32,000 nucleotides of DNA from Candidatus Methylomirabilis limnetica (GTDB lineage: Bacteria > Methylomirabilota > Methylomirabilia > Methylomirabilales > Methylomirabilaceae), in assembly GCF_003044035.1 (NCBI RefSeq), contig NZ_NVQC01000017.1, forward strand, positions 60,001 through 92,000. The letters run 5' to 3'. The position numbers were made by a program, and so were the translations under genes. Positions 5,711 through 32,000 of this stretch are shown here, in pieces. Under the pieces are notes generated by a model, which was given only the letters and a program-made list of their open reading frames with translations, was not told the origin of the DNA and did not search any database. The stretch's first letter is position 1, and each line of letters begins with the position of its first letter.

Positions 5711-5780
5711 AGTTCATAGTTCACAGTTCATAGTTCAGGGAGTTTCTAACCACGAACCCTTGAACTATGAACTGTGAACT
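5711..5780. repeat. 7-nt-periodic hairpin: AGTTCAT AGTTCAC AGTTCAT AGTTCAG GG, 16-nt loop, CCCTTGAACTATGAACTGTGAACT; ~22-bp stem with one bulge
   Basis: Read directly. The reverse complement of 5757..5780 equals 5718..5740 apart from one extra A. It fills the gap between the secD stop (5784) and the secF ATG (5706). Confidence 0.9.
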
Positions 5781-5783
5781 TCC

Positions 5784-12387: not shown

Positions 12388-12801
12388 ATGGCGGAAGCGA
12401 TCCAATCCCTTGTCGCTTGCGTTTCTGGCATGCTATCTGACAGCAGCATCCATGGAAAGATCTACGAATATTCGGAATCCGGGCTCTACTTTGGCGTGCC
12501 GCTTATCAACCTCTTTGGGTGGGCAGTTGTGGGATTTGTGACAATCGCCCTCTTTCAACAGATCGATTCTACGCTGGCGGCAGAGCCGACCTTAGACCGA
12601 GGGGTGAAACTGATCGAGTGTGGCGTCATACTCTACTATCTGATTCTAGTCTTTAGCCGCTCGATGACCTTTGCCGTTGGCGAGTTGCTGTCTGGAATAA
12701 CCGGAGCCTTACTGTACATCCCAATCACTTGGATGGTCTTCATACGCTACTGGCAGTGGTCGGCAGCCCACAGGCGTGTCAGTCGTGGAGCGCTATTATG
12801 A
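12388..12801 (+). CDS. Small integral membrane protein; tentatively resembles the C-terminal half of the carotenoid-biosynthesis / CruF-like family (PF04240)
   Basis: Shine-Dalgarno GAGGGAG lies 4 nt upstream. The protein has 3-4 hydrophobic segments, and YFGVPLINLFGW matches the G-x-P-x-x-N-x-x-GW motif as I recall it for that family. Its stop overlaps the hpnH start (ATGA at 12798..12801). The functional call is weak. Confidence 0.55.
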   Translation: MAEAIQSLVACVSGMLSDSSIHGKIYEYSESGLYFGVPLINLFGWAVVGFVTIALFQQIDSTLAAEPTLDRGVKLIECGVILYYLILVFSRSMTFAVGELLSGITGALLYIPITWMVFIRYWQWSAAHRRVSRGALL

Positions 12802-13799: not shown

Positions 13800-13804
13800 G
13801 CGCT

Positions 13805-15793: not shown

Positions 15794-16583
15794 CCGGGTC
15801 CGCGGCGCGCCACTCGCCATCTTCGTGGCGACTCAGGCAGAGTTGAGGCCCATCGCCACGGCCTTGCAGCCGCCTAGCCGATCAATATATCGATCGAACT
15901 CGATGATCCGGGTTGGGATAGAGGGCCGCGATCTCCTGCTGGCCAATACCGGAGTGGGACCGGACAACGCCGAAGCCGCTGCCCGCCACCTCTTTGAAGA
16001 GATGCCTGTCACCGCCGCCTTGTCGCTCGGAGTCGCAGGCGGACTGAGCCCTCAGTTACAGACAGGGGATCTGATTGTGGGAGACCGGGCGATCCTTCGC
16101 CGCGGCTCAGGACAGGTCTTGCACGGGGAGAAGGGATCGGGATCGCAGAGCTTCCCGTGCGATTCCGGCTTGCAGGAGGCGGCCATAACCGTTATCCGCC
16201 GATCGGGTAGTCGGTACTATCTCGGCCCAATCCTTACCGTCGATAGGATTGTTCGGACGGCAGAGGAGAAGTGCCTACTGGCGGCGGAGTCAGGTGCCGT
16301 GGCCCTGGATATGGAGAGCGCAGCCATCGCGTCTGCGGCCTTGGCGTATTCTGTCCCCTTCCTGGCTATTCGTGGCGTCCTCGATCCGGTCCATGAAGAT
16401 CTCGCGATCGACTTCGATCAGTTTCTCGGCATAGAGGGGGAACCAAATCTACCCCGATTGATGCGATATCTGATCGCACATCCGTTTACCCTTCCTCGCC
16501 TGATCGGACTGGGTATTCGGACCAAGGCGGTCTGCGCTCGTCTCGGTCGACTGCTGCATGAGCTCTCAACCACCCTCAGCTGA
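15765..16583 (+). CDS. hpnG: Hopanoid-associated nucleosidase/phosphorylase (PNP_UDP_1 family)
   Basis: LSLGVAGGL, ALDMESAAIA and FLAIRGVLD are MTA/SAH-nucleosidase-like motifs, and the gene sits immediately after shc. The start is uncertain; ATG 15765 overlaps the shc end by 29 nt. Confidence 0.8.
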   Translation: MKTARPSRASRVRGAPLAIFVATQAELRPIATALQPPSRSIYRSNSMIRVGIEGRDLLLANTGVGPDNAEAAARHLFEEMPVTAALSLGVAGGLSPQLQTGDLIVGDRAILRRGSGQVLHGEKGSGSQSFPCDSGLQEAAITVIRRSGSRYYLGPILTVDRIVRTAEEKCLLAAESGAVALDMESAAIASAALAYSVPFLAIRGVLDPVHEDLAIDFDQFLGIEGEPNLPRLMRYLIAHPFTLPRLIGLGIRTKAVCARLGRLLHELSTTLS

Positions 16584-16698
16584 GCCGTTGAGGTCCGTCC
16601 TCGTTCTGCAACGTCCTACCGATACAGGTAGGCTGCGGACGGCAGGGAGGCGAGTACCTGCATCCGTCCTTCGTGGCGCGCTTCTCCGGAGGTGTGTC

Positions 16699-17910
16699 TT
16701 GGATAGTCCCGATCTCTCGAAGTTGAGCATCGACCGAACTGCGGCCCGCATACCGCGCGCGCGCCGACGGCTGTGGCCTTGGGCGGTGGGCCTCGTCCTG
16801 TTGGTCGCTACGGCAGTACTCGGATTCTCCGGCGGCCTCGGCGGTTCTGTGACGGTGGAGACCGCCTCGGTCACGACCGCGTATCCGTCACAGGCGGTGA
16901 CCGTGCTGAACGCTACAGGCTACGTCGTCGCACAGCGCAAGGCCGCGGTGGCGTCAAAGGCGACGGGACGCCTCGAATGGCTCGGCGTGATGGAAGGTAG
17001 CCGCGTCAAGAAGGACGAGATCATCGCGCGGATTGAAAGCCGCGACGTCGCAGCGGGCCGCGAGCAGGCGGCGGCGAGCGTTAAGGTCGCCGAGGCGAAC
17101 CTCGAGCAGGCACAGGCCGAGCTGCGCGACGCCGAACGTAACTTGACGCGTTGGCGTGAGCTGTCCCAGAACAAGCTTATCAGCGAATTGGAGCTCGACA
17201 CCGCGATAGCGCGGGCCGACAAGGCGAGCGCGGCGGTGCGGTCGAGTGATGCCGCCATCGCGGTCGCTCGGGCGAACCTGAAGGTGGCGGACGTCTCGTT
17301 CGACCAGACACTGATCCGCGCGCCGTTCAACGGGGTAGTGCTCACCAAGAACGCGAACGTCGGCGACAATATCACCCCGTTCTCGAGCGCTGTCGATACC
17401 AAGGGCGCGGTTCTAACCATGGCCGATATGTCGACGCTCGAAGTAGAGGCGGACGTGGCGGAGTCCTCGCTCAGCCGGATCAAGGTCAACCAGCCGTGTG
17501 AGATTCAGCTCGACGCCGTGCCCGACACACGCTTTGCCGGCATGGTGAACCGCATCGTTCCGACCATCGATCGCGCGAAGGCGACGGTGATGGTAAAGAT
17601 CGGATTCGTGGACCGCGACGCGCGCCTACTGCCCGACATGAGTGCCAAGGTCGCGTTCCTCGAGCGCGAGGTCGCACCGGCCGATCGGAAGCCGGTCACC
17701 GCCGTCCCGAGGCAGGCGATCGTCGAGCGCGACGGCGCGAAGGTCGTCTTTGTCCTGAAAGACGGCAGGGCGATACGCACCAAGATCGAGACCGGCCGCG
17801 CGCTCGGTGATCTGGTCGAGGTGAGCGGCGTCCCGGCAGGGGAGAAGGTCGTCCTCAAGCCCCTCGATAAGCTCGCCGACGGGACGCGCATCAAGATGAA
17901 CAAGAAGTGA
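16699..17910 (+). CDS. Efflux transporter periplasmic adaptor (membrane fusion protein, HlyD/MacA-like)
   Basis: It has an N-terminal TM (WAVGLVLLVATAVLGF), a long coiled-coil hairpin (AEANLEQAQAELRDAERNL...) and LIRAPFNGVV beta-barrel motifs. TTG 16699 follows GGAGG at 6 nt; the track ORF starts at ATG 16558, inside hpnG. Confidence 0.88.
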   Translation: MDSPDLSKLSIDRTAARIPRARRRLWPWAVGLVLLVATAVLGFSGGLGGSVTVETASVTTAYPSQAVTVLNATGYVVAQRKAAVASKATGRLEWLGVMEGSRVKKDEIIARIESRDVAAGREQAAASVKVAEANLEQAQAELRDAERNLTRWRELSQNKLISELELDTAIARADKASAAVRSSDAAIAVARANLKVADVSFDQTLIRAPFNGVVLTKNANVGDNITPFSSAVDTKGAVLTMADMSTLEVEADVAESSLSRIKVNQPCEIQLDAVPDTRFAGMVNRIVPTIDRAKATVMVKIGFVDRDARLLPDMSAKVAFLEREVAPADRKPVTAVPRQAIVERDGAKVVFVLKDGRAIRTKIETGRALGDLVEVSGVPAGEKVVLKPLDKLADGTRIKMNKK

Positions 17911-17929
17911 CGGCGAGAGGCGATCGATA

Positions 17930-18652
17930 GTGCAGGAGACCGTCGCTCCGCTGCCACTGATCGACATCCGCAACGTCGCGAAGTCCTACTGGCGCGGCGG
18001 ACAGATCGTACCGGTGTTGACCGACATCACCCTCGAGGTGCACGCGGGCGACTTCCTAGGCCTGATGGGCCCATCGGGCTCGGGCAAGTCGACACTGCTC
18101 AATCTGATCGCCGGTATCGACAAGCCCGACGCCGGACAGATCCTCTTCGACGGCGTCGACATCACCCGGCTGTCGGAGACCGCGCTCGCAGACTGGCGCG
18201 CGGGCACGGTCGGCTTCATCTTCCAGTTCTACAACCTGATACCGGTCCTGACAGCCTTCGAGAACGTCGAACTGCCGCTCACGCTGACGCGCCTCACCCG
18301 CCGCGAGCGGCGCGAGCACGTGGAAGCGGCGCTCGCGCTCGTCGGTCTGTCGGATCGTATGCCGCACTATCCATCGGAGCTCTCCGGTGGGCAGCAGCAG
18401 CGTGTCGCAATCGCGCGCGCGATCATTACCGACCCGCGGCTGATCGTAGCCGACGAGCCGACCGGCGACCTCGACCGCCACTCGGCCGAGGAGGTGCTCA
18501 AACTCATGGACCGCCTGAGCACCGACCTCGGCAAGACGATCGTGATGGTCACGCACGACCGGCGCGCCGCAGACCAGGCCCATGCGATCATGTATCTCGA
18601 CAAGGGCGAGCTGTCGACGGCGGTCGATGTACACGAGCAGTCGCTGAGGTGA
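17930..18652 (+). CDS. ABC transporter ATP-binding protein (LolD / MacB-NBD type)
   Basis: Walker [10 protein letters not shown], signature [14 protein letters not shown] and Walker [12 protein letters not shown] are all present. Confidence 0.93.
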
Positions 18653-18659
18653 TCGCCCG

Positions 18660-19817
18660 GTGCAGTTCCTGAAGCTCATCCTCCGCAACGCGCTGCGCCA
18701 CAGGCTGCGCACTGCGCTCACGCTGCTCGGGCTGGTCGTGGCGATCCTGTCGTTCGGGCTGCTGCAGACGATCGTGAGCGCGTGGTACGCCGGCGCGGAG
18801 GGCGCGGCGCCGACGCGGCTCGTAACGCGCAACGCGATCTCGCTCGTCTTCGCGCTACCGCTCAGCTATCGCGACCAGATCCGCGCCGTCGACGGCGTAC
18901 GCTCCGTCTCGCATGCGACTTGGTTCGCCGGCATCTATCAGGACCCCAAGAACTTCTTCCCGCAGTTCGCCATCGAACCGCGCACCTATTTGGCCATGTA
19001 CCCTGAGTACCTCGTAGCGCCGCAGGAGTTCGCCGCCTTTCTGCGCGACCGCAAGGGCGCCGTCATCGGTCGCAAGCTCGCCGGCACATACCACCTCAAG
19101 GTCGGAGACGTGCTGCCGCTGCGCGGGACGATCTATCCCGGCACCTGGGAGTTTACGGTGCGCACCATCTACGACGGTGTCGATGCGAAGACCGATACCT
19201 CGCAGATGTTCTTCCACTGGGAGTATCTCACCGAGACGATGAAGAAGCGCTCCCGCAGTCACGCCGATCAAGTCGGCGTCTATGTCGTCGACGTCGCGGA
19301 TGCCGACCGCGTGGCCGAAGTGAGCTACGCAATCGATGCGCTGTTCAAAAACTCGCTCGCCGAGACGCTGACCGAAACCGAGCGCGCGTTTCAGATCGGC
19401 TTCGTCAAGCAGACCGAGGCGCTTGTCGTCGCGATCCAGATCGTATCCTACATCGTAATCGTCATCATCCTCGCGGTGATGGCGAACACAATGGCGATGA
19501 CCGCCCGTGAGCGGCTCGGCGAGTACGCGACGCTCAAAGTCCTCGGGTTCTCACCCGTCTACATCGCGGCGCTCATCCTCGGCGAATCGGTCGCGATCGC
19601 CGCGATCGGAGCGGCAATAGGCATCGCGCTGACGTTCCCGGTAAGCGACTGGTTCGCAGCGCAGGTGGGCACACTGTTCCCAGTGTTCAAGGTGAGCGGC
19701 CAGACCGTTATGCTGCAGGTCCTCTGCGCGCTCGGAGTCGGCGTCGTTGCGGCGATTGTGCCAGGGCGGCGGGCGGCGACGGTAAAGATAGCGGAGGGGC
19801 TACGCGCGATCCGGTGA
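18660..19817 (+). CDS. ABC transporter permease, FtsX/MacB-type (periplasmic domain plus FtsX 4-TM fold)
   Basis: It has an N-terminal TM, a ~200-aa extracytoplasmic domain and a C-terminal FtsX-like region ([15 protein letters not shown]). Confidence 0.88.
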
Positions 19818-19833
19818 TCGCGGAGGCGCACCC

Positions 19834-21000
19834 ATGCCGATTCCCATTGCGTATAGTGTACGTAACCTCTGGGCTCGTAAGTTTACCACCGCGCTTACCG
19901 CGGGTGGGATGGCGCTCGTCGTCTTTGTATTCACCGCAGTGATGATGCTCGATGCCGGACTCAAGAAAACGCTCGTGGCGACCGGACAGCCCAACAACAT
20001 CCTTGTCACGCGCCGCTCCTCCGGCACCGAGATTCAGAGCGGGGTCGCGCGCACGCAGGCGGCGATCATAGAGAGCCAGCCCGAGATCGCGATCGGTCCC
20101 GGCGGGGTGCGGATGGCGTCGAAGGAGGTGGTCGTGCTGATTACGCAGCCGAAGCGCAACACCGGGGTGCCGACCAACGTGACTGTGCGCGGGGTGGGCT
20201 TGCAGGGTCTCACCCTTCGCCCACAGATCCGGGTGATCTCCGGGCGGATGTTTCGGCCGGACAGCGCCGAGATCGCGGTAGGCAGGAGCATCGCCGAGCG
20301 CTTCAACGGCACGGGTATCGGTGAACGGCTGCGCTTTGGGGGCCGCGACTGGACGGTGGTCGGCGTATTCGACGCCGGCGGATCGGCGTTCGACTCCGAG
20401 GTGTGGGGCGACGGCGAGCAGATGATCCAGGCGTTCCGACGGACGGCGTTCTCGTCGGTCGCCGCACGCCTCGCTGACCCGTCGCGGTTCGACGCGCTGA
20501 AGCCGCGCCTCGAGTCCGACCCGCGGCTCACGCTCGACGTAAAGCGCGAGCAGACCTTCTACGAAGAGCAGTCGCAGGCTATGTCGAACTTCATCAGCTA
20601 CCTCGGACTGACCCTTTCGGTCATCTTCTCGGTCGGCGCGATGATCGGCGCAATGATCACCATGTACGCTGCGGTGGCTACCCGCACGTCGGAGATCGGC
20701 GTACTGCGCGCGCTCGGGTTTCGGCGCGGCTCGATCCTTGTCGCGTTCCTCGTGGAGGCGCTCTTCCTCGGCCTCGCCGGATGGGTGGTAGGGCTGGCGC
20801 TCGCCTCGGCGATGCAACTCGTACAGATCTCGACGATGAACTGGCAATCGTTCTCGGAGCTCGCGTTCCGGTTCGCGCTTACGCCGGAGATCGTCTGGAA
20901 GTCGCTCGTATTCGCGCTCGCGATGGGACTGGCGGGCGGGTTCCTGCCCGCAGTTCGCGCAGCGCGCTTAAAGATCGTGGATGCGCTAAGGGCAGCTTAG
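19834..21000 (+). CDS. Second ABC transporter permease, FtsX/MacB-type
   Basis: The architecture matches the preceding gene, with RTSEIGVLRALGFRR in the FtsX region. GGAGG lies 8 nt upstream of the ATG. Confidence 0.88.
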   Translation: MPIPIAYSVRNLWARKFTTALTAGGMALVVFVFTAVMMLDAGLKKTLVATGQPNNILVTRRSSGTEIQSGVARTQAAIIESQPEIAIGPGGVRMASKEVVVLITQPKRNTGVPTNVTVRGVGLQGLTLRPQIRVISGRMFRPDSAEIAVGRSIAERFNGTGIGERLRFGGRDWTVVGVFDAGGSAFDSEVWGDGEQMIQAFRRTAFSSVAARLADPSRFDALKPRLESDPRLTLDVKREQTFYEEQSQAMSNFISYLGLTLSVIFSVGAMIGAMITMYAAVATRTSEIGVLRALGFRRGSILVAFLVEALFLGLAGWVVGLALASAMQLVQISTMNWQSFSELAFRFALTPEIVWKSLVFALAMGLAGGFLPAVRAARLKIVDALRAA

Positions 21001-21214
21001 AGCAAGAGCTGCGCTCACACCAGATGGTCCGTCCCGAAGGCGGGGTCGTTGGTCTGGGGACGTTCGCCCAAGACTCACCGTGTCAGGTTGCCCGATCCCT
21101 CCAGGATAATCATTCCGCTCCATTTTTCTGTTGACCCTCGCATGCTTTTTCTGTTAGCTTCTTGTGCGCTTCCCGGTACAATGGCCATTCGATCTGCAAT
21201 CTGTCGAGGTCAGG

Positions 21215-23176: not shown

Positions 23177-24664
23177 ATGCGTAATGGACGGTTTAACACC
23201 AGAACTTTGATAGCAGTGGCAGCGTCCTGCTTGATTCTTGGAGTACTTATCACGGCCTCTTTGAATCTAGTCCCGATCTCAAAGGCCACGACTGCGGGGT
23301 TTTGGACGGAACAACGAGAGAGCAGGGCGCTTAGTTCGAGTCAGACCTCAGATGGGAAGCTCTGGGTTCGGTTGGCGAAGGAGCTGACTCCCGCTGTGGT
23401 GAATATCAGCACCACTCAGGTGGTCAAGGGAAGGGGCATCTCTCCTCGCGGCCCTTTCGGTGAAGACGATCCATCCAACGAGTTCTTTAAACGGTACTTC
23501 GGTGAGAGTCCCCGGCAATTCAAGGCGACCAGCCTTGGATCCGGATTCATTATTAACAAAGACGGCTACATTCTGACGAATAACCACGTGGTCGAGAACG
23601 CCACGGACATTACCGTGAAGCTGGGTGACGGCCGAGAGTTCAAGGCGAAGCTGATCGGGAGGGATCCAAAGACTGATATCGCCCTCATCAAAATCGAGGT
23701 CTCCAGCCTGCCCGTGATCCCGTTTGGTGACTCGGATAAACTGGAGGTAGGCGAGCCGGTCATGGCGATTGGCAATCCATTCGGCCTGAGCCAGACGGTC
23801 ACCACCGGTATCGTCAGCGCCAAAGGCCGGTTCATTGGCGAAGGCCCGTATGACAACTTTATCCAGACCGATGCCTCTATTAATCGGGGCAACAGCGGCG
23901 GCCCACTGATCAACACCAACGGTGAGGCGGTGGGAGTCAACACCGCCATACTCAGCCCAACAGGCGGTTCGATCGGGATCGGCTTTGCGATTCCTATCGC
24001 TATGATTAAGGAGGTTCTGCCGCAGCTCAAAGAGAGGGGGCAAGTCACCAGGGGGTGGCTTGGCGTGGCGATTCAACCGATTACCCCGGAGCTAGGCAAG
24101 AGATTCTCCCTCAAGCAGGCGAATGGCGCCCTGGTGTCGGATGTTATGGAGGGATCACCAGCCGAACACGCCGGGGTCAAACCAGGGGACGTCATTGTGG
24201 AGTTTGATGGCAAGAACGTCAAGTCCTCTACCGATCTGCCCCACATCGTCGCCAGTACCCCGGTGGGGAAAGATGTCGCTATGAAAGTCATCCGCGACGG
24301 GGCCGAACTCACGCTGCGGATCAAGGTTGGCGAGCTTAAAGAGGAGCAGATGGCGGCCATTACGCCGTCCTCTCCGAAAACGAAGCTGGGAATCGATATT
24401 CAGGAACTCAATCCGGCACTCTCCCGTAAGTTTGGAATTAAGGGTGAAAAAGGCGTTGTGGTCACAGAGGTTGAACCTGAGAGCCCCGGTGATGCGGCCG
24501 GGTTACAACCAGGAGATCTGATCCTGGAGATCAACCGTGTAAAGGTGACGACAGTGAACCAGGTCAAGCGGATTTTGGAGAAAACTAAGCCAGACGAGCC
24601 GACGCTACTTCTGATCAAGCGGGACGGTGGGACGCGGTATGTGGTGATCGGGGCCGACGGGTAG
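23177..24664 (+). CDS. htrA: Periplasmic serine endoprotease, DegP/HtrA (Do) family, two PDZ domains
   Basis: The catalytic triad context is present (TNNHVV, DIALIK, GNSGGPL), with a signal/anchor segment and two PDZ repeats (GALVSDV...GDVIVEF and GVVVTEV...GDLILEI). Confidence 0.93.
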   Translation: MRNGRFNTRTLIAVAASCLILGVLITASLNLVPISKATTAGFWTEQRESRALSSSQTSDGKLWVRLAKELTPAVVNISTTQVVKGRGISPRGPFGEDDPSNEFFKRYFGESPRQFKATSLGSGFIINKDGYILTNNHVVENATDITVKLGDGREFKAKLIGRDPKTDIALIKIEVSSLPVIPFGDSDKLEVGEPVMAIGNPFGLSQTVTTGIVSAKGRFIGEGPYDNFIQTDASINRGNSGGPLINTNGEAVGVNTAILSPTGGSIGIGFAIPIAMIKEVLPQLKERGQVTRGWLGVAIQPITPELGKRFSLKQANGALVSDVMEGSPAEHAGVKPGDVIVEFDGKNVKSSTDLPHIVASTPVGKDVAMKVIRDGAELTLRIKVGELKEEQMAAITPSSPKTKLGIDIQELNPALSRKFGIKGEKGVVVTEVEPESPGDAAGLQPGDLILEINRVKVTTVNQVKRILEKTKPDEPTLLLIKRDGGTRYVVIGADG

Positions 24665-24679
24665 GTGGGTTGGGCGGTT

Positions 24680-25321
24680 ATGAGTCTCCGCGTGAACGAG
24701 ATCTTCTACAGCATCCAGGGGGAATCGACCTATGCCGGTCGGCCGTGTGTCTTTGTCCGCCTGACCGGGTGTAACCTGCGGTGCCGGTGGTGCGATACGG
24801 CCTACGCTTTCCACGAGGGCGAGTCGCGCTCGGTAGAGCAGGCACTGGAACAGGTACGGTCCTATAAGTGCCCATTGGTCGAGATCACTGGGGGGGAGCC
24901 GTTGTTGCAGGAAGATGTGTATCCTCTAATCAGTCGCTTGCTCCTTGAGGAATACGAAGTCCTGATCGAAACAGGGGGGAGCCTCAGCGTTGATCGCCTC
25001 GATCCCAGGGTGGTCAAGATCCTGGACCTTAAGGCCCCGGGGAGCGAGATGGACCCTCACAACAATTTTGATAACCTCCGGTATCTCGACAGGAAGGACC
25101 AGATCAAATTCGTCGTCGCGGATCGCCGGGACTACGAGTGGGCGAAGCAAGTGATGGCGGAGCATACCCTGGCCGAAAAGGTCCAGGTTCTCTTCTCCCC
25201 GGTGTTCGGCGAGTTACATCCTGGCGAGCTGGCGGAATGGCTCTTGGCTGATCGACTTGCCGCCAGACTCCAGATTCAACTTCATAAGTACCTTTGGGAG
25301 CCAAGTCGGCGGGGAGTGTAG
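24680..25321 (+). CDS. queE: 7-carboxy-7-deazaguanine synthase (radical SAM)
   Basis: [36 protein letters not shown] is the QueE N-terminal signature. I chose ATG 24680 over GTG 24665. Confidence 0.9.
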
Positions 25322-26055
25322 TGAACCTGTCTGCGTGCAACGTACAGGCAGGCAAGCGTGCTGTCGTCCTGCTGAGCGGTGGACTCGACTCCGCAACAGC
25401 AGCCGCAATGGCAAAGGCCGAGGGGTATGCGCTTCATGCCCTCACCTTTCGCTACGGCCAGCGTCACGCGCGCGAGGTGGAGAGCGCGAAGAAGATCGCA
25501 GCCGCCCTTGGTGTCGTCCGGCACCTGATCCTTAAGCTTGATCTTCGGCAGATTGGCGGTTCAGCCCTGACCGCTGACATCCCGGTGCCAAAGGGCCGCG
25601 GGCTGGAGGAGATTGAGGCCGGCATCCCCGTCACCTACGTCCCTGCCCGTAACACCATCTTTCTCTCCCATGCGCTGGCTTGGGCGGAGGTGATCGGCTC
25701 TAAAGACATCGTGCTCGGGGTCAACGCGATCGACTATAGCGGGTACCCGGATTGTCGGCCGGAATACATCGCGGCCTTCGAGCAGATGGCGAACCTGGCG
25801 ACGCAGGCCGGCGTTGAAGGCGGATCCAGGCTGACCATCCATACCCCGCTGATCCACTTTACCAAGGCCGAGATCGTCCGGCGAGGCGCTGCCCTTGGGG
25901 TAGATTTCGCGCTAACCTGGAGTTGCTACGACCCGACCCCGGATGGGCGGCCCTGTCGCGCCTGTGACAGTTGCATCCTGCGGGAGAAAGGCTTCGCCGA
26001 AGCCGGCCTCCTGGACCCTGGCCCTACTGCCTCTAAGCTGCCTTTTGAGCGGTAG
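25321..26055 (+). CDS. queC: 7-cyano-7-deazaguanine (preQ0) synthase
   Basis: [14 protein letters not shown] (PP-loop) and a C-terminal Zn-binding Cys cluster (CYDP...[10 protein letters not shown]). GTG 25321 overlaps the queE TAG by 1 nt; the alternative start is TTG 25294. Confidence 0.9.
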
Positions 26056-26175
26056 TCCTCCTGGATTCATCGGTCTCCGTCCAAGCGATCGCTCATCCCA
26101 AGGACAGCGACAGGAGGGCCTGCTATTCACCATCCGGCTCATAGCATCCACCGTCTCCAAACAGATAGGGAAAAG

Positions 26176-26199
26176 AGTGGTGACCCGTTCGGGACTCGA
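26176..26199 (-). repeat. Orphan 24-nt copy of the 3' end of tRNA-Lys (AGTGGTGACCCGTTCGGGACTCGA on the plus strand); att-like distal repeat
   Basis: Perfect match to 29649..29672 in the same orientation, read directly. Confidence 0.85.
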
Positions 26200-26200
26200 T

Positions 26201-26953
26201 CTAAATATTTGGTGCTCCGGCACCTCGATCTGACGATCCCCTTCTCGGGGAAGGTGGCGGCATAACCGATCCACCAGGCACCCGTCGAGGCTGTAGCCTC
26301 GCGACGGTCTTCTGCATCGTCTCCAGCCAACAACAGGCAAAGTGGACATTCCTCAAACGCTCGGCTTCCTCAGGCACCCAACTTATAATGACCTCATCTT
26401 CAATTAGCCTCGTGCAGATTACGGGGGTGTCATCTCCGTTCACGGAGATGACGACGGTGCGCGTGGCCTGCGACAAGCGGAGCAGCTCGAGCGCCGACTC
26501 CGGAACGACGAGGCAAAGCGACACGCCCGCTGCGTGGCAACCTAGCATGAATCCGTGCGCGGGGTTGCCGGCGGAACAGACCAGCAACGGCGCGCGATCG
26601 TTCGCCGGTAGCGACAGATACCGGGCCAGCGTGACTTGTGCCTCGAACTCCTTGAAGGAACGCGACGTGCGCCGCCATAATCCAAGCCGCGCCGCCTATC
26701 CGACGCTGCGATAGCAACAGGACCGTCCCAATTCACCTTCGAGCAGGACAGAGTCGATCGGCAGTCAGTCGCGGTACGGAAAGATTCTCGACAGCGAAGT
26801 CTCGATGGAGAGCTTCGTGGACGAGTAAAACGCCTCCAATAAAGCGGGGCCGTGTTCGCGTTCGCAGCACAGTTGGAAGCCAGCGTCTGCAAACTCAGCG
26901 TCACACTCTGGATGCAGACATTTAAGACGATACGCCGCCACGCTACGGAGCAC
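26201..26953 (-). pseudogene. Threonine-synthase-like PLP (PALP fold) gene, decayed: in-frame TGA (26765..26767) and TAG (26696..26698), 3' end truncated at the att-like repeat
   Basis: A single minus-strand frame reads VLRSVAAYRLKCLHPECDAEF...QLCCEREHGPALLEAFY (ThrC-type zinc-ribbon N-terminus) ...PYRD*LPIDSVLLEGELGRSCCYRSVG*AARLG...LLVCSAGNPAHGFMLGCHAAGVSLCLVVPES...WLETMQKTVA. Compare the ThrC motifs SAGN and (E)GQKT. The position where the S-F-K-D-R PLP lysine is expected reads S-C-C-Y-R. Confidence 0.6.
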
Positions 26954-28253
26954 CTTCCAGTGCCGCCGTAGGAACCGGCACCACTTCGGCTTCGAGCAGG
27001 AATTCATTCAGTTTCAACAACGGGTCGTATGACGCTACGAAATACGCCAGCAGAAACGACTCGCCGAACCGTTGCTTCGTCCGCTCGATCGTCTCCACCA
27101 TCGTGAGCGATTCGACACTGAGAAGTTGTCCCGGCTTCAACCCCGACGAAAGGCGCCGCATCATTTCCTCCGGTGCCATCCCGCGAAGATATTTCGCAAC
27201 CGGCGGCCGAAGGAACACGCCGTCGCTCAATCCGGCAATTTCTTCGGACACCGAGCGATGATAGTCCTCCTCACGGTTGCCAACAGAACTGGCCACCCCC
27301 ACGAGATACCGGCACCCGAGCGCCTCTTGAACCCGACGGATCATCGGCGCTTCGAGCCGGTAGGCGTCGGGGTTCTTGCAGTGCAACAGCAACACGTAAT
27401 GACCTCGGAACCGGGCCAGGATGAAGCGACCGACAGGATAATCCCGATAGTCGCGTTCGTACTCGCGCAACACAGTGAGTTGCGCTTGGCGCGGCACTGG
27501 AAACGTGTCGCTGATTCCCTCAATGGCCGCAAGCGCCGCGAGGGCGTTGGCGATGTTGTAGCGTTGGTGTCCGCCGAACGTCATCGGCATTTCCGTTGCT
27601 GGCAGCAGGCGCCCCTCCCTCGCGTCATCTTTGCGCCACAACCAGCCGTCGCGCAGAAACCAGCCCCGGTCGAACTCATTCTCGCGTCCCGCGACGGTAA
27701 AGAAGATGGGACTGGCGCGACTCACCATCGTCATCGCCGCGACGCGCGGATCGTCCGCATTCAACACCACTGCGCCTGACGGATGGGTGCGACGGGCAAT
27801 CTCAGACTTGGCCTCCGCCATCTGGTCGAGCGTCCACACTCCTTCCAAGCCGAGATGATCCGCCAACACATTGGTCACAACTCCGACCCGGCACGTTGAG
27901 AAGCCAGGCCCGTAACAAAGCATCCCGCCGCGCCCCACTTCGGCGACAACCACTTGCAACCCCGGACAGTGCAGCGCCCGCCAAATTCCACGGTGACCGG
28001 CACGATCACCAACAGCAACGCGAACGCCGTTTTGGTACACGCCGTAGGTGGTGCACGTTCCAACCTTGTAGCCAGCGGCACGCAGCATCCGGTCAATGAG
28101 GTGAACCGTCGTGGTTTTCCCATTGGTACCGGTAACCGCGATGACGGGCGCGCGTCGCACCCATACACCCGTCCGCACAACATACCGGGCTTCGAATCGC
28201 AGCTTCCAGTGATGCAACCGGGCGCGCACTTGATGGAGAATGTTCCTATCCAT
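26943..28253 (-). CDS. Standalone Mur-ligase-family protein resembling the C-terminal (Mur-ligase) half of cyanophycin synthetase
   Basis: VIAVTGTNGKTTTVHLIDRMLRAAGYKVG (P-loop), VVAEVGRGGML, VVTNVLADHLG and VLNADDPRVAAM are present. ATG 28253 (MDRNILHQ...) is the first Met ahead of the ligase core, but the open frame continues upstream to 28499. Confidence 0.75.
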   Translation of the reverse strand: MDRNILHQVRARLHHWKLRFEARYVVRTGVWVRRAPVIAVTGTNGKTTTVHLIDRMLRAAGYKVGTCTTYGVYQNGVRVAVGDRAGHRGIWRALHCPGLQVVVAEVGRGGMLCYGPGFSTCRVGVVTNVLADHLGLEGVWTLDQMAEAKSEIARRTHPSGAVVLNADDPRVAAMTMVSRASPIFFTVAGRENEFDRGWFLRDGWLWRKDDAREGRLLPATEMPMTFGGHQRYNIANALAALAAIEGISDTFPVPRQAQLTVLREYERDYRDYPVGRFILARFRGHYVLLLHCKNPDAYRLEAPMIRRVQEALGCRYLVGVASSVGNREEDYHRSVSEEIAGLSDGVFLRPPVAKYLRGMAPEEMMRRLSSGLKPGQLLSVESLTMVETIERTKQRFGESFLLAYFVASYDPLLKLNEFLLEAEVVPVPTAALEGAP

Positions 28254-28442
28254 GCTCAGGGTTTTATGTAATGGGCCAAGACGGCGGAGTTGTGTCCACG
28301 CGACCGCGGCTAGCGCAACGACAATGAGCGTGCCGACGCCACCCACCACGACCGAGAACATTGCGCCGCCCCACACCACCACGATGCCGGACTCGAACGC
28401 ACCGAGTTTGTTGGAGGTCGTGATGAAGACACTGTTGACGGC
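28254..28442 (-). pseudogene. Remnant of the last TM helix / C-terminus of an MFS transporter, fused in frame to the Mur-ligase ORF
   Basis: AVNSVFITTSNKLGAFESGIVVVWGGAMFSVVVGGVGTLIVVALAAVAWTQLRRL matches the characteristic C-terminal (SN-x-LG-x-FESG ... GG-x-GT ... LRR) end of one MFS subfamily, as I recall it. There is no upstream MFS body; the frame is cut at ~28500. Confidence 0.5.
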
Positions 28443-28513
28443 GGACGCGTCCACGCATCGCGTCGGGCGGGAGCGCTTGCACGAGCGTGTGACGGACAAC
28501 GACGCTGCTCTAA

Positions 28514-28915
28514 CGGGTTTACGCGATAACCAGTTCTGGCGGGAGGCGGGTCTGGGCCGGCTATGGGGCCGTCTCGGCGGCCAAGGCAGCTCTGGAGTCG
28601 CATATCCGGCAGCTCGCGATGGAGCTGGCCCCCATAGGGATTACGGCGAACGCTATCCGCGCAGGGGTCACCGATACTCCAGCGCTCCGGAAGATCCCAG
28701 GAAGCCAGGGGATCGTAGAAACTGCGATGCGGCTCAATCCCTCCGGCCGCCTCACCACGCCCGAAGACATTGCCGAAATCCTCGTCACCTTGAGCCGCCC
28801 CGAGACCTACTGGATGACAGGTAACGTGATCGGGGTGGATGGGGGCGAGGATGTCGTAGCGTTCTTTATCTCCCCTGCAACGGCGGCAGGCACGGAAAGG
28901 CCGACGCCCGCTTGA
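28514..28915 (+). pseudogene. 5'-truncated enoyl-[ACP] reductase (FabL/FabI-like SDR), C-terminal ~133 aa only
   Basis: My translation from just after TAA 28511 reads RVYAITSSGGRRVWAGYGAVSAAKAALESHIRQLAMELAPIGITANAIRAGVTDTPALRKIPG...MTGNVIGVDGG. It has the Y-x6-K catalytic pair, but the whole Rossmann N-terminus (GxxxGxG) is absent. Confidence 0.65.
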
Positions 28916-29066
28916 TGAGGGATGCATGGGCCTCGTTGTGGGTAAAAGAGGATGTCAACCACGGGACTCGGCAGGTCAGGTACTGCGAGAGAGGCTCACG
29001 CATGAGGTTAACTGCAAAAAGTCGGGTTAAACCTATGCGCCGGGTGCGCGGCACAGCTCCGTTTGA

Positions 29067-29216
29067 TCAGCCACGGCTTGCTTGCCCGCCACCAGCCTGG
29101 CGACGGAATCGCCCCAGAGATACCGGCTGCCCTGCCGTGATATCTCTCAGCGGCTTGTGCCTCGTCAGCATTGGTTTCGTGTACGGCTGCTTTGGAGCCA
29201 GCGTGAAATCCTTCGT
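29067..29216 (-). CDS. Small ORF A (49 codons), paralog of ORF B; its start position is ACG where ORF B has ATG, so it may be inactive
   Basis: My translation is (T/M)KDFTLAPKQPYTKPMLTRHKPLRDITAGQPVSLGRFRRQAGGGQASRG*. TAAGGAG lies 7 nt upstream of the ACG. It is below the size cutoff of the ORF track. Confidence 0.35.
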   Translation of the reverse strand, partial: TKDFTLAPKQPYTKPMLTRHKPLRDITAGQPVSLGRFRRQAGGGQASRG

Positions 29217-29275
29217 TGGCTCACTCCTTAGATTTTAAGTTTACGATAGCGAGGGCTATGCCGTCTCGGTAAGCA

Positions 29276-29404
29276 TCAGTCTACTGACGGAGATATCTGC
29301 TGAGCCGTGATGTCCCGTAGCGGCTTGTGCTTCGTGAGTGTTGGCTTCGTGTACGGCTGCTTCGAGTCGGTCTCACGGACGTTCTGTTCCTGGACTTCCT
29401 TCAT
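29276..29404 (-). CDS. Small ORF B (42 aa), RiPP-precursor-like peptide
   Basis: GAAGGAG lies 7 nt upstream of ATG 29404..29402. My translation is MKEVQEQNVRETDSKQPYTKPTLTKHKPLRDITAQQISPSVD*. It shares an 18/20-identical central block with ORF A, while both flanks differ. Confidence 0.5.
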   Translation of the reverse strand: MKEVQEQNVRETDSKQPYTKPTLTKHKPLRDITAQQISPSVD

Positions 29405-29650
29405 GATTTTTCTCCTTCGCAGAGTCGTTTGTTGCAGTGACGATCACCAATGCGCATTCCGAACTTCCCACCACCGCAGGCAGGGAGGTAGGGGCGGATG
29501 TAGCACTCCTCGGGCAGGATCGGCTCCCGATAGCACTAGAAGTTTAATAGAAAAATCAAAATACTATGGTTCACCATATCCTCTAAAATCGAAGGGGTCA
29601 AGGAAGTTTTTCAGGGTGTGTTGGTAGCAATGAAAGGCATTAGAATGAAG

Positions 29651-29726
29651 TGGTGACCCGTTCGGGACTCGAACCCGAGACTCCCTGCTTAAAAGGCAGG
29701 AGCTCTGCCAACTGAGCTAACGGGTC
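29651..29726 (-). tRNA. tRNA-Lys (anticodon UUU), 76 nt with encoded CCA
   Basis: The reverse complement is GACCCGTTAGCTCAGTTGGCAGAGCTCCTGCCTTTTAAGCAGGGAGTCTCGGGTTCGAGTCCCGAACGGGTCACCA. It folds by hand into a cloverleaf with a 7-bp acceptor stem, D arm, anticodon stem CCTGC/GCAGG with loop CTTTTAA, 5-nt variable loop and a T arm with GGTTCGAGTCC. Confidence 0.93.
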
Positions 29727-29766
29727 GTCATGCAGAAGGCTATAGTCGCGACGTTGCAGAGGAAGC

Positions 29767-31077
29767 TTAGCGTGCCAGTCCCCACTGCCGCAAAGCCGGC
29801 GTCGAGCGAAGGATCGTCTGGTCCCGTCGGGGCCCTGTGGAGATGAGCCCTGCCTTGACCCCTGTCAGCCCCTCAATCCGCTCGATATAGGCCCGGCAGT
29901 GGGCCGGTAGACGCTTGTATGAGGTGATGCCGACAATGCTCTCGTTCCAGCCTGGCACCTCTTCATAGATCGGCTCACACGCCTTCAGGAGACCGGTCTC
30001 GTTCGGAAATTCTCGAAGGATCGCGCCGTTACATCGGTAGCTCGTGCAGATCCGGATCGAGTCACAGGCATCAAGGACATCTAGCTTCATGAGGGCGAGG
30101 GCCGATAGGCCGTTGATCCTGGCGCTGTACCTGACGGCAACGGCATCGAACCAGCCGCAGCGCCTCGGCCGCCCCGTTGTGGCCCCAAACTCCTGCCCAC
30201 GTGTCTGCAGCATCTGACCGATCGCATCCGTAAGCTCCGTCGGCATCGGACCCTCGCCGACGCGCGTCGTATAGGCCTTGGTTACGCCCAGGACGCCGTC
30301 GATCACTAACGGACTCACCCCGGTCCCGGTACAGGCGCCTCCGGCCGTGGCGCTCGATGAGGTGACGTAGGGGTAGGTCCCGAGATCGACGTCCAGGAGG
30401 GTCCCCTGCGCCCCCTCAAACAGGACGCTCTTCCCGGTTTTGATCAGATCGTAAATGATAAGGGAGCTGTCCACCACGAAGCCGCGAACGCGCTCGAACT
30501 GTTCAAGTTGCTCCGCCGCCATCTTTTCGCAATCCAGCTCCGCCAGCTCCTGATGCTGTGGGAACTGGGCGCGCTTCTCTTCAAGGTTACTGCGGAGGCG
30601 CTCCCTGAAGAGGTCGCGGTCGGTCAGATCGCCAACCCGGATCCCTGTCCTCGCCATCTTATCGATATAGGCTGGACCAATCCCGCGTCTAGTGGTCCCG
30701 ATCTGCCGACCCTCTCGGAGCCGTTCCAGCTCGGCGTCCAGGATCTTATGGTAGGGAAGCACCAGATGCGCGTTCTTACTGATAAAGAAGTTCTCCTCGA
30801 TCTTCACGTGCAGCTTTCTGAGCTGATCCATTTCCTGGATAAGGGCGGTCAGGTCAATCACCACGCCGTTCCCCAGGATGCAGACCTTCCCCTTCCTCAG
30901 TACGCCCGACGGGACCAGGTGCAGGACTATCTTCTCCTCCTCCACCACGACCGTATGGCCCGCGTTGGTCCCACCCTGGTACCGGGCCACCGCATCAAAA
31001 TACTCTGAGAGGAGATCAACAATCTTCCCCTTCCCTTCGTCGCCCCACTGCGTGCCGACAACAATTACATTGGCCAT
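29767..31077 (-). CDS. purA: Adenylosuccinate synthetase
   Basis: MANVIVVGTQWGDEGKGKIVDLL (P-loop), GGTNAGHTV, TTRRGIGPAY and GTTGRPRRCGWFD are PurA signatures. ATG 31077 is preferred over the track start at 31107. Confidence 0.95.
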   Translation of the reverse strand: MANVIVVGTQWGDEGKGKIVDLLSEYFDAVARYQGGTNAGHTVVVEEEKIVLHLVPSGVLRKGKVCILGNGVVIDLTALIQEMDQLRKLHVKIEENFFISKNAHLVLPYHKILDAELERLREGRQIGTTRRGIGPAYIDKMARTGIRVGDLTDRDLFRERLRSNLEEKRAQFPQHQELAELDCEKMAAEQLEQFERVRGFVVDSSLIIYDLIKTGKSVLFEGAQGTLLDVDLGTYPYVTSSSATAGGACTGTGVSPLVIDGVLGVTKAYTTRVGEGPMPTELTDAIGQMLQTRGQEFGATTGRPRRCGWFDAVAVRYSARINGLSALALMKLDVLDACDSIRICTSYRCNGAILREFPNETGLLKACEPIYEEVPGWNESIVGITSYKRLPAHCRAYIERIEGLTGVKAGLISTGPRRDQTILRSTPALRQWGLAR

Positions 31078-32000
31078 CGCCGTTCTCCACGTTCGACCTC
31101 GCCGCAAAATCGCTCAACCGGGACCCGCTCCTCAGCCCCAGAGTCAAGGTCCCTGACGAGCAACTCGTCCTGAGGCAGATGAGGTAAGCCCAGCACGATC
31201 GCTCGGCTGATCCCGGACGCTACCGCATAGTCAAATGAACCTTCCAGATCCCGCTTGATGATGTCTCTCGCCGCCGAGTAGCCCTGTTCCCGCAGAAGCC
31301 GAGCAATGCGAAGGGCGTGGCGCTTATCGGGGTTAAAGTCGATAATCAGAAACTTCTGGCTCGTCACGAGGGGAGGCCGATCCTCGGCAGCGACAGCCTC
31401 CAGGACCTTATCCAGATCGAAGGCAAAGCCGGTAGCGGGGCAGGGATACCCGAACCCACCGATCAGGTCGTCGTATCGGCCGCCGCGTGAGATCTCAGAG
31501 CCCAGGCCCTGAGCAAATGCCGCAAAGGTCACGCCAGTGTGGTACTCGAAGGCCCTCGCTTCGCCAAGATCGATGATCACCTGATCCGCCAAACCGTACT
31601 GCTCCAGGACTTCATAAACCTGGGTGAGGTTTCTCAGGGCCTCCTGTGAACGCCGGTTGGGCGCCAGGTCCTGCGCACGAGCCAGAACCTCTTTCCCGCC
31701 ATAGAGTGTTGGTAGGTCCAGCACAGCCTGCTTGGACTTATCGTCCGCATCCAGACCTTGCAGGAGCAGCTCAAGCTCGAGGGTATCTTTCCTGTTGATG
31801 GCCGAAACAAGCGCTCGGCGTCGATCGGGCTCGAGATCCAGGGCATCGACGAGCCCCCGCACGTACTCGATCTGGCCGACATCAATCTGAAAGCGCTGCA
31901 GGCCGAGGGCCCGGCAGCCCTCCACCACCATCGCCACCATCTCGGCATCGGCCTCCGGCCGCTCCAGCCCAATCAGCTCCACGCCAAGCTGGACACACTC
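31065..32000 (-). CDS. hisZ: ATP phosphoribosyltransferase regulatory subunit (HisRS-like), C-terminal ~310 aa; the 5' end lies beyond the right edge
   Basis: IDLGEARAFEYHTGVTFAAF and GGRYDDLIGGFG are class II aaRS-like HisZ motifs. hisZ-purA adjacency is common. The frame is still open at the window end, and the stop overlaps the purA start by 13 nt. Confidence 0.85.
   Translation of the reverse strand, partial: ECVQLGVELIGLERPEADAEMVAMVVEGCRALGLQRFQIDVGQIEYVRGLVDALDLEPDRRRALVSAINRKDTLELELLLQGLDADDKSKQAVLDLPTLYGGKEVLARAQDLAPNRRSQEALRNLTQVYEVLEQYGLADQVIIDLGEARAFEYHTGVTFAAFAQGLGSEISRGGRYDDLIGGFGYPCPATGFAFDLDKVLEAVAAEDRPPLVTSQKFLIIDFNPDKRHALRIARLLREQGYSAARDIIKRDLEGSFDYAVASGISRAIVLGLPHLPQDELLVRDLDSGAEERVPVERFCGEVERGERRWPM

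Follow-up and report, generated by a model that had tools for sequence, protein, structure and literature searches.

The window analysed here is the whole 32,000-nucleotide stretch from Candidatus Methylomirabilis limnetica, a methane oxidiser. On its minus strand it contains a tRNA-Lys(UUU) gene with an encoded CCA (29651-29726), recovered by ARAGORN and by the Rfam tRNA model (69.6 bits); an identical tRNA-Lys adjoins purA in six sister Methylomirabilis contigs. The sequence AGTGGTGACCCGTTCGGGACTCGA has exactly two copies in the window, which lie in direct orientation. The proximal copy (29649-29672, plus strand) corresponds to the last 22 nt of the tRNA gene plus 2 nt and, given the position and strand of this gene, spans part of the T loop, the 3' strand of the T stem, the 3' acceptor strand, the discriminator, the CCA and the 2 nt beyond. 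The distal copy (26176-26199, plus strand) is a displaced fragment of the tRNA 3' end located 120 nt downstream of queC. No 24-mer repeat is expected by chance according to 100 dinucleotide-preserving shuffles, and no third copy was found in the window allowing up to three mismatches; the perfect repeat reported by the initial annotation is therefore confirmed at both coordinates. An intact tRNA gene together with a displaced 3' copy is the signature used for mapping tRNA-gene islands (PMC4383910), and our data support that the 3.45 kb between the copies (26200-29648) form a discrete unit, where the tRNA gene would be the integration target on the attL side and the distal copy would mark the attR side.

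From the tRNA gene towards queC, the segment begins with a 116-nt junction stretch (29533-29648) that shows no recognised feature by sequence, GC profile or Pfam scan. It had been described as AT-rich, but it shows merely a modest dip, to about 0.52 GC, and its single promoter-like match (minus strand, 29601-29573) is not above chance. The next feature, on the minus strand, is the 3' stub of a radical-SAM/SPASM peptide maturase (29401-29532), identified by tblastn, whose 44 codons show 64-68% identity to the C-termini of two rSAM/SPASM proteins of contig L121 (E 1e-15 to 1e-16), with 80% DNA identity over 239 nt. The stop codon of this stub overlaps the ATG of mini-ORF A (29276-29404, minus strand; WP_275666218.1), an intact gene encoding a 42-residue precursor peptide with the leader KQPYTKPTLTKHKPLRDITA(G). 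Mini-ORF B (29067-29216, minus strand) is a paralogue of A (profile E 2e-20), and both share a 66-nt repeat (29127-29192 and 29297-29362) with 82% identity, in agreement with the duplication noted initially. Mini-ORF B shows an intact AAGGAG upstream and an ACG at the start-codon position, and is probably a pseudogene. Furthermore, the plus strand carries a 5'-truncated, enoyl-ACP-reductase-like SDR fragment (approximately 28517-28915) that matches positions 125-234 of the 236 in Pfam adh_short_C2; its previous description as a headless FabL fragment is right in truncation and strand, although the name FabL is over-specific.

The only large intact gene of the segment encodes a Mur-ligase-family protein of 436 residues (26943-28253, minus strand, from the ATG at 28253; Pfam Mur_ligase_M, E 9e-21), which is 100% identical to the M. 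limnetica protein PTL36149.1 and is full length in relation to its homologues (66-81% identity). Its best NCBIfam match is cyanophycin synthetase, CphA (TIGR02068), although the resemblance is limited to the Mur-ligase-like C-terminal half (positions 478-816 of the model; score of 228 bits, cut-off 850), and the entire N-terminal ATP-grasp half is missing. In contrast to CphA, the homologues are stand-alone proteins of 425-440 residues, whose genes adjoin MFS_3 or ATP-grasp_3, HpnH/SHC or RiPP-type genes. In frame with the Mur-ligase ORF we found a 3' remnant of an MFS_3 transporter of about 84 codons (28254-28506, minus strand). It gave weak tblastn matches to annotated MFS transporters, and shows 73% identity to the last 60 residues (345-404) of a 406-aa MFS_3 protein encoded directly upstream of a Mur-ligase homologue in contig L111, where positions 5730-7274 are collinear with 28506-26962 of the window; the in-frame fusion reported previously is thus corroborated. 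The pair shows 74-79% nucleotide identity to Verrucomicrobia-type contigs with the same MFS_3-Mur ligase order, which points to a foreign affinity. The Mur ligase is followed by a pseudogene of a cysteate-synthase/ThrC-like PLP enzyme (26432-26942, minus strand), of which only the N-terminal 40-45% is left (PALP profile positions 33-111 of 295). Its translation confirmed the two in-frame stops in a single reading frame, but the supposed cut exactly at the distal repeat was not observed, because homology stops at about 26432-26457, some 230 nt short of it. The remaining 232 nt up to the distal copy (26200-26431) are a non-coding arm without matches to Rfam families and without significant structure (fold z-score -1.97).

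The segment cannot be distinguished from its surroundings by composition, contrary to the initial impression for the Mur-ligase/ThrC part: its GC content is 0.596 versus 0.594 in the window, its tetranucleotide correlation (0.80) falls among the values of other 3.4-kb intervals, and the GC3 of the Mur ligase is 0.70 versus 0.67-0.76 in neighbouring genes. Composition therefore gives the segment no foreign mark. In addition, the rSAM stub and peptide genes look derived from Methylomirabilis-type genes, as probably does the SDR tail. The view of the segment as foreign and eroded stands for its largely truncated or inactivated genes and the lack of an integrase; it fails on composition and on the part of Methylomirabilis type. 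In agreement with the lack of an integrase noted before, a six-frame Pfam scan of 26150-29700 gave no integrase, recombinase or transposase domain, and none was found in the larger ORFs of the remaining window. The search for an intact integrase-bearing island at this tRNA, which had been proposed as a check, was negative in all seven alleles of the site (the M. limnetica islet and six others), so that site-specific integration at tRNA-Lys may be proposed from geometry and analogy only.

The other proposed check, for relatives with queC directly adjoining tRNA-Lys, was positive. Three independent metagenome contigs, L005 (ENA ERZ27280245), L006 (SRR35119656) and L110 (ERR3856785), show an empty site with queC joined to tRNA-Lys via one repeat copy, and the junction falls exactly at the repeat in all three datasets. 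L110 shows two mismatches over 3022 nt of flank and then jumps from 26199 to 29649. At least two haplotype backgrounds have the empty site, and one of these matches the occupied strain at 99.93% identity. The occupied allele recurs with 100% identity in L003, L004, L108 and L109, and across the island in L002, while L001 differs from the window by 12 SNPs in total, all clustered at 28588-28941. Natural populations are polymorphic for the presence of the segment, with break points exactly at the two 24-bp copies; it is therefore a segregating indel with precise bounds. Since an outgroup also has the occupied state, precise loss is a simpler reading of the empty sites within M. limnetica than an ancestral condition. 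Separately, L002 appears as a recombinant haplotype, which could be an assembly switch between co-occurring strains. All these sequences are metagenome assemblies, where haplotype switching may occur if identity is longer than k, but a chance repeat or assembly artefact is extremely improbable: besides the shuffling result, both alleles come from different samples and different assemblers (SPAdes-type NODE contigs, MEGAHIT k141 and Logan), and the k-mer sizes used exceed the length of the repeat, so that each junction must be spanned by k-mers with unique flank on both sides.

The same site carries other cargo in sister Methylomirabilis lineages. L102 and L105 contain dus-tex-aph, with the apparently housekeeping-type dus and tex beginning about 35 nt after the tRNA, whereas L100 and L101 contain ParE/PIN/Phd/CopG toxin-antitoxin genes and IS fragments. 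All four show degenerate counterparts of the distal repeat (5/24 mismatches in L102), which in L102 and L105 adjoin queC. Despite the different cargo, the entire arm is common to L102 with about 90% identity, 240 nt next to the repeat being shared there, and its first 62-85 nt are common to L100 and L101. The tRNA-Lys site is thus an old, repeatedly reused hot spot whose cargo turned over between fixed ends, and the distal repeat is older than the present cargo. Consequently, of the attL/attR footprint originally described, the discrete bounded unit and its empty sites hold, but it was not the present cargo's insertion that produced the repeat pair, because L102 and L105 carry the degenerate fragment and L102 shares the arm beside dus-tex-aph. 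The perfect distal repeat here, against the mismatches in L102 and the arm at about 90%, hints that recombination or gene conversion at the repeat is more recent than plain common descent would imply.

These alleles also bear on whether any integration took place. The distal 24-mer could be the remains of an old tandem or nearby tRNA-Lys duplicate, the interval a fast-evolving region and the empty alleles deletions. L105 keeps beside queC a longer tRNA-Lys remnant extending to the anticodon loop, which would be explained equally well by two or more integration events, by an old tRNA duplication or by a single T-loop crossover; the position of dus and tex between the copies and the lack of integrase and compositional signal also favour duplication. 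We nevertheless regard it as improbable, since in L104, L008 and L103 the intact tRNA is directly followed by sequence homologous to that after the distal repeat of M. limnetica, as predicted by the attB model, which fits insertional displacement. Furthermore, dus-tex-aph is itself a mobile or acquired module, found after tRNA-Gln in an M. limnetica-type contig and with a Tex 84-87% identical to that of Rhodocyclales, and the toxin-antitoxin genes and IS elements of the other alleles are classic island cargo.

We consider it probable that a non-autonomous islet, now a remnant, occupies 26200-29648 at the tRNA-Lys(UUU) 3' end, in a decayed and reused slot. A tyrosine-integrase element would have recombined within the tRNA gene's block from the T loop to the 3' end, rebuilding the tRNA and leaving the displaced 24-nt fragment beside what had been the downstream flank, towards queC. 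Later the slot would have been reused and eroded by successive insertions, deletions and gene-fragment capture, so that two genes are intact, a putative Mur-ligase-type amide ligase and a small peptide gene, five others are truncated or dead and no recombinase is left; erosion is documented by the rSAM stub, mini-ORF B, the SDR and MFS tails and the PLP pseudogene. The islet encodes nothing able to move itself. Its loss or exchange between strains would most likely follow one of three routes: the repeat copies could recombine with each other (in a RecA-dependent way or by slippage), an integrase could act in trans, or the conserved flanks queC and purA could undergo homologous recombination.

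An active cis-mobilizable element, with functional attL/attR, whose excision and re-integration would depend on a tyrosine integrase from another part of the genome or from a visiting element, appears unlikely. The conserved 60-240-nt arm would then be a putative binding region for the recombinase or accessory proteins, common to a family of integrase-less tRNA-Lys cassettes. The 24/24 repeat identity versus the degenerate sister copies, the precise empty sites on different backgrounds, the arm conserved in four islets with differing cargo and the lack of an own integrase in every allele speak for it, and elements with attL and attR but without integration and transfer genes are an established concept (PMC6323972). 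However, viral contigs did not contain the tRNA 3' end, no integrase emerged as a candidate, the arm shows neither significant structure nor a known family, and loss through the 24-bp repeats or flank recombination explains the same data. The metagenome contig collection likewise yielded no attP-type circular junction, but this test is weak, since circles that are rare seldom appear in assemblies.

Among known systems, the remnant islet resembles the tDNA islands mapped by Islander (Hudson, Lau and Williams 2015, PMC4383910) in the intact tRNA gene and direct-orientation displaced 3' fragment at its ends, its strain-variable presence with a precise empty site, and the alternative islands at the same tRNA in related genomes. 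It differs in the lack of the integrase gene that Islander demands, and in its small size, cargo mostly of gene fragments and unremarkable composition. CIMEs are defined in ICEberg 2.0 (PMC6323972) as cis-mobilizable elements from decayed ICEs or IMEs. Like them, the islet has intact att-type flanking repeats, no integration or transfer genes and presence/absence between close strains; unlike them, defined by a known cognate ICE/integrase mobilising by accretion, no partner, tandem array or circular form was found for it. Known CIME examples are mainly from Firmicutes, and none is known from the NC10 phylum. Its precise absence from some near-identical strains makes the islet a real but ordinary decayed genomic island, an integrase-less tRNA islet that is CIME-like.

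Mini-ORF A has 10 homologues among 1.84 billion representative proteins, and their gene clusters include a PqqD-type chaperone, a B2 protease and an HprK-like kinase, all found with the peptide in one cluster of the M. oxyfera genome; the B2 protein beside them passes the NCBIfam cut-off for lasso peptide biosynthesis B2 protein. Three further contexts connect the peptide family with the Mur-ligase family: L114, L118/L120 and the Mur-ligase-PqqD fusion P0015. The lasso leader motif is YxxPxLx3Gx5Tx, and the leader here has its spacing, with K where the motif has G. Unlike lasso clusters, the peptide clusters seen contain no Asn-synthetase-type cyclase, the cores have just 6-11 residues without a conserved acidic residue at position 7-9, and the partners of the peptides are radical-SAM/SPASM and Mur-ligase or ATP-grasp genes; the window itself holds only peptides, maturase stub and Mur ligase. 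A retained functional cassette, in which peptide A and the Mur-ligase-type enzyme would feed into a lasso-like RiPP system encoded elsewhere in the genome (PqqD, B2 protease, rSAM/SPASM, HprK-like kinase) or tailor its product, would be compatible with the favoured account of the boundaries. These linkages, the full-length Mur ligase and the 100% conservation of the island among several samples favour it, but we think it doubtful: the cassette is dispensable, given the empty alleles of near-identical strains, mini-ORF B lost its start codon, the adjacent maturase is down to a stub, and neither the upstream gene nor the promoter region of the Mur ligase itself is left. A more novel point than the islet is that the peptides, like the Mur ligase, belong to a cyclase-less RiPP system of lasso-like type.

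The window contains the 24-mer AGTGGTGACCCGTTCGGGACTCGA exactly twice, in direct orientation: the copies at 26176-26199 and 29649-29672 are identical at 24/24 nt and lie 3473 nt apart. No third copy with three or fewer mismatches was found in the window, and chance alone would give none. According to ARAGORN and Rfam, a tRNA-Lys(UUU) gene lies at 29651-29726 on the minus strand, and in the sense of this tRNA the repeat reads TCGAGTCCCGAACGGGTCACCA followed by CT. It includes the 3' portion of the T loop, the 3' strands of the T stem and of the acceptor stem, the discriminator, the encoded CCA and two further bases; the distal copy is located downstream of queC (25321-26055; Pfam QueC, E 5e-77), 120 nt away. 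The exact copies and the placement of the tRNA bear out to the base the direct repeat of the tRNA-Lys 3' end described in the initial annotation. An intact tRNA gene with a displaced 3' fragment, in direct orientation and downstream of the tRNA, is also the arrangement of the tDNA islands collected in Islander (Hudson, Lau and Williams 2015, PMC4383910). Rfam reported no match besides the tRNA over 25900-29800, and a search of viral contigs gave no match to the tRNA 3' end.

Public assemblies looked up with the PurA and QueC of the window yielded contigs of both occupied and empty states. The occupied allele is 100% identical to the window in contigs L003, L004, L108 and L109, and 99.4-99.9% identical in L001 and L002. 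The empty allele was recovered in three independent datasets, with the junction at the repeat, as in the empty attB that Islander expects in relatives and as the initial annotation had proposed to look for. Contig L005 (ENA ERZ27280245) aligns to 32000-29649 of the window, then to 26199-25353, with a single 24-nt copy in common; L006 (SRR35119656) shows the tRNA and the repeat followed by CTTTTC, which is the queC-side flank; and L110 (ERR3856785) shows 99.93% identity over 23178-26199, with 2 mismatches among 3022 nt, before resuming at 29649-29737. Because the repeat is shorter than the k-mer sizes of the assemblers, the junction k-mers include unique flank, and an assembly artefact is therefore unlikely. 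At least two haplotype backgrounds carry the empty allele; SNPs in the flanks fall at 25520-26172 and 31368-31980. Contig L002 combines the 'B' haplotype of queC and hisZ with the 'A'-type spacer and islet, a mosaic that could reflect real transfer by recombination in the flanks or an assembly switch; it was set aside as proof of such transfer, given that identical stretches longer than k permit assembly switching.

The interval between the repeats comprises 3449 nt (26200-29648). Next to the tRNA, 116 mildly AT-rich nucleotides (29648-29533) are followed by the 3'-terminal 44 codons of a radical-SAM/SPASM maturase gene (29532-29401, minus strand), with 64-68% amino acid identity to contig L121. 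The stop codon of this stub overlaps the ATG of mini-ORF A (29404-29276, minus), which is intact and encodes 42 amino acids; mini-ORF B (29216-29067, minus) is its paralogue, in line with the duplication reported earlier, and shows an ACG start codon behind an intact AAGGAG. On the opposite strand lies the headless fragment already recognised there, now assigned to the last ~110-130 codons of an SDR gene (28517-28915, plus; adh_short_C2 positions 125-234 of 236). It abuts, within ~10 nt, the equally headless last ~84 codons of an MFS_3 transporter gene (28506-28254, minus), and a single deletion across a divergent promoter would leave such a pair. The MFS remnant is in frame with an intact Mur-ligase-family gene of 436 codons (28253-26943, minus), as the fusion in the initial annotation implied. 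Next comes the N-terminal 40-45% of a cysteate-synthase/ThrC-like PLP pseudogene (26942-26432, minus) and, up to the distal repeat, a non-coding stretch of 232 nt (26431-26200), hereafter the arm. The two in-frame stops of the ThrC-like gene were found as previously stated; its supposed truncation exactly at the distal repeat was not, since homology stops ~230 nt short of it in the alignment to protein P0121/contig L099. All 12 differences between the window and contig L001 cluster at 28588-28941, in or just after the SDR fragment, with the rest of the 12.2 kb identical; such clustering suggests that a full-length SDR paralogue, closely related and located elsewhere in the genome, took part in gene conversion or caused assembly cross-talk.

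Neither a six-frame Pfam scan of 26150-29700 nor an ORF scan detected a remnant of an integrase (including Phage_integrase), recombinase or transposase, which upholds the earlier statement that no integrase is present, and the remaining large ORFs of the window do not encode any such enzyme either. The islet thus differs from Islander islands, which hold a tyrosine integrase gene inside the interval, and resembles cis-mobilizable elements (CIMEs; ICEberg 2.0, PMC6323972), which have lost the genes for integration, excision and transfer. Scans for promoters and terminators gave matches at chance level. The fold of the arm is marginally better than that of shuffled sequences (z = -1.97), and with this value and no Rfam match its reading as a structured RNA or tRNA-like element was dropped. 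A profile search with the arm found one copy per islet, and no tandem repeat copies appeared in this search or in the repeat search of the window; an integron-like or multi-cassette reading was rejected for lack of a tandem cassette array by the arm profile.

The compositional argument of the initial annotation, that by eye the Mur-ligase/ThrC part is richer in GCG/CGC than queC and purA, did not hold up: GC content, tetranucleotides, GC3 and GCG/CGC density all fail to separate the islet from the window. Its GC content is 0.596 versus 0.594 for the window, its tetranucleotide correlation of 0.80 falls inside the range of the window, and the GC3 of the Mur-ligase gene is 0.70 versus 0.67-0.76 in neighbouring genes. 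The sole clear compositional outlier of the window (GC ~0.65, tetranucleotide L1 distance 0.42) is a 4.5-kb segment at 16606-21113 encoding HlyD, an ABC ATPase and two FtsX/MacB-type permeases. This segment is missing from the otherwise collinear sister contig L102 and is probably a second, separate acquisition.

An exact-match scan of metagenome contigs for the tRNA-Lys gene gave six sister Methylomirabilis contigs, with purA genes 86-95% identical. The linkage of purA and tRNA-Lys was observed in 6/6, and the sequence after the tRNA is different in each. In L102 and L105, a dus-tex-aph module of 4.9 kb follows the tRNA and precedes queC, which is adjoined by a degenerate tRNA fragment in both. 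The fragment has 5/24 mismatches in L102; the remnant in L105 is longer, extends as far as the anticodon loop and lacks 13 nt internally. Furthermore, L102 shares the whole arm (window 26200-26441) at ~90% identity. The cargo of L100 and L101 consists of ParE-like, PIN, Phd and CopG toxin-antitoxin genes and IS fragments, and both end in a degenerate tRNA fragment together with the initial 62-85 nt of the arm. Contigs L104, L008 and L103 show an intact tRNA followed by a flank homologous to the M. limnetica sequence beyond the distal repeat (CTCTTYTYCCTATCTG...), a continuity such as would be expected of an unoccupied attB. No integrase was seen in the sister alleles L100-L105 and L008 at the tRNA-Lys site.

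The dus-tex-aph module (L105 5816-10715; L102 6834-11777; L106 2108-7067) lies directly after tRNA-Lys in the two sister lineages, and after tRNA-Gln(CTG), between greA and ychF, in an M. limnetica-type contig. The Tex protein of the module shares 84-87% identity with that of Rhodocyclales (Betaproteobacteria), which implies that these apparently housekeeping genes moved between phyla. The dus gene of L105 begins 35 nt after the tRNA, and the ~480 nt between tRNA-Lys and dus in L102 (11777-12260) are missing in L105, a further small indel at the hot spot.

Because an outgroup with different genes shares the distal fragment and the arm, these two predate the present cargo. Therefore, the repeat pair was not created by inserting the present 3.2 kb, and the empty alleles nested in M. 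limnetica would most simply be precise losses. We had taken the empty site as the ancestral state and revised this on finding the repeat and arm in the outgroup L102. Of the earlier interpretation, the decayed, integrase-less tRNA islet stands, whereas the creation of the repeat by the present cargo does not, and the segment is foreign only in part, some of the cargo being of Methylomirabilis type. Loss could follow one of three routes: an integrase acting in trans, recombination or slippage involving the two 24-bp copies, or homologous exchange of flanking sequence. Compared with the five mismatches seen in L102, the 24/24 identity of the repeats here is a hint of a more recent event at this place. 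The identical core repeats and the conserved arm adjoining the distal copy would also suit a CIME that is still active; the exact circular (attP-type) junction, which excision by a cognate ICE or integrase would produce, is absent from metagenome contigs, although this is a weak test, and we regard such activity as unlikely. Origin of the repeat by duplication of the tRNA appears highly improbable. The islet is probably a passive, non-autonomous remnant. Searches of the literature gave no paper that treats islands of M. limnetica.

The Mur-ligase ORF has a counterpart of 100% identity among the proteins of Candidatus Methylomirabilis limnetica. It is annotated as 503-518 residues (26943-28499, minus) by gene callers and NCBI because of the in-frame MFS remnant upstream. 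Most likely, translation truly starts at the ATG at 28253, which gives 436 residues, in keeping with all homologues. Unlike cyanophycin synthetases, which join an N-terminal ATP-grasp to a C-terminal Mur-ligase-like domain and score above the family cut-off, it matches TIGR02068 at positions 478-816 only, with 228 bits versus a cut-off of 850, and is therefore not a CphA. The closest homologues, 66-81% identical, are stand-alone proteins of 425-440 residues, one set being from a Verrucomicrobia MAG, and their genes adjoin an MFS_3 gene in the order of the window (L111) or an ATP-grasp_3 gene. Genes for HpnH and squalene-hopene cyclase are often nearby: homologues of 78-81% identity stand beside ATP-grasp_3/MFS_3, HpnH (radical SAM with DUF3463) and squalene-hopene cyclase in L011 (8001-13535), L015 (8001-11579) and L111 (4761-10636). 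The hpnH-shc-hpnG cluster of the window itself (12729-16583) is ~10 kb from the islet, a proximity that could be fortuitous or reflect a connection with hopanoids.

The mini-ORFs are not noise. When 1.84 billion representative proteins were searched with phmmer, ten small homologues emerged, each with a conserved leader. The family comprises peptides of 34-65 residues in which a hypervariable tail, 6-11 residues long, follows this leader (..KQPYTKPTLTKHKPLRDITAG), encoded at window 29067-29404 (minus), L114 2530-2661, L115 10001-10123, L118 8001-8111 and L121 8062-10198. The homologue of M. oxyfera lies between, on one side, a PqqD chaperone and a protein above the 'lasso peptide biosynthesis B2' cut-off and, on the other, an HprK-related kinase. 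In L121, four peptides alternate with rSAM/SPASM genes; in L114, a Mur-ligase gene (72% identical) precedes the peptide gene; and the cluster of L118 and L120 also contains an ATP-grasp gene and a Mur-ligase gene 34% identical to that of the window. Mur-ligase relatives near peptides are located at L114 911-2227, L118 5324-6454 and L120 2934-4304, together with protein P0015, a Mur-ligase-PqqD fusion; NTP_transf_5 is sometimes present in the peptide clusters.

Lasso precursors have a leader YxxPxLx3Gx5Tx and a core with a ring-forming Asp/Glu at position 7-9. The mini-ORF peptides fit the spacing of the leader, with K replacing G, and their cores are too short and variable; in NCBIfam, no lasso-leader model matches and no model covers the mini-ORFs. 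No lasso cyclase of the Asn-synthetase type was seen in the window or in any related cluster, the sole match of this type in the window being QueC. Genes for B1 (PqqD) and B2 (transglutaminase-type protease) are absent from the window and adjoin the homologous peptides in L115, L118 and L121. Peptides and clusters look like an undescribed lasso-like RiPP system, of which the window has only the peptides, the Mur ligase and the stub of the maturase; that the islet carries fragments of such a cyclase-less system is put forward as a lead, not a result. Literature searches turned up no work linking a RiPP, a Mur ligase and a precursor peptide, and none on a protein named ScmC. A broader scheme, in which the tRNA-Lys site hosts small integrase-less cassettes with conserved arms of ~60-240 nt next to the displaced tRNA fragment, exchanged by a recombinase in trans, and the M. 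limnetica cassette is still mobile and carries parts of a cyclase-less lasso-like RiPP system whose stand-alone Mur ligase replaces the cyclase on short leader-guided peptides, seems very unlikely as a whole.

The class of islet is well known, and this is a textbook case of it: the usual tRNA-linked hot spot of gene flux is present in an uncultured methanotroph of the NC10 phylum that is known through metagenomes alone. Such a site can be resolved to single nucleotides, and natural populations yielded both alleles. Some 3.4 kb of the M. limnetica reference is thereby marked as strain-variable, and annotated 'genes' such as the 518-aa fusion ORF and the 98-aa SDR ORF are flagged as fragments. 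The cargo is the more useful lead, with families of peptides and stand-alone Mur ligases that recur with a lasso-type chaperone and protease and without a cyclase, an association that could point to undescribed peptide-modification chemistry.
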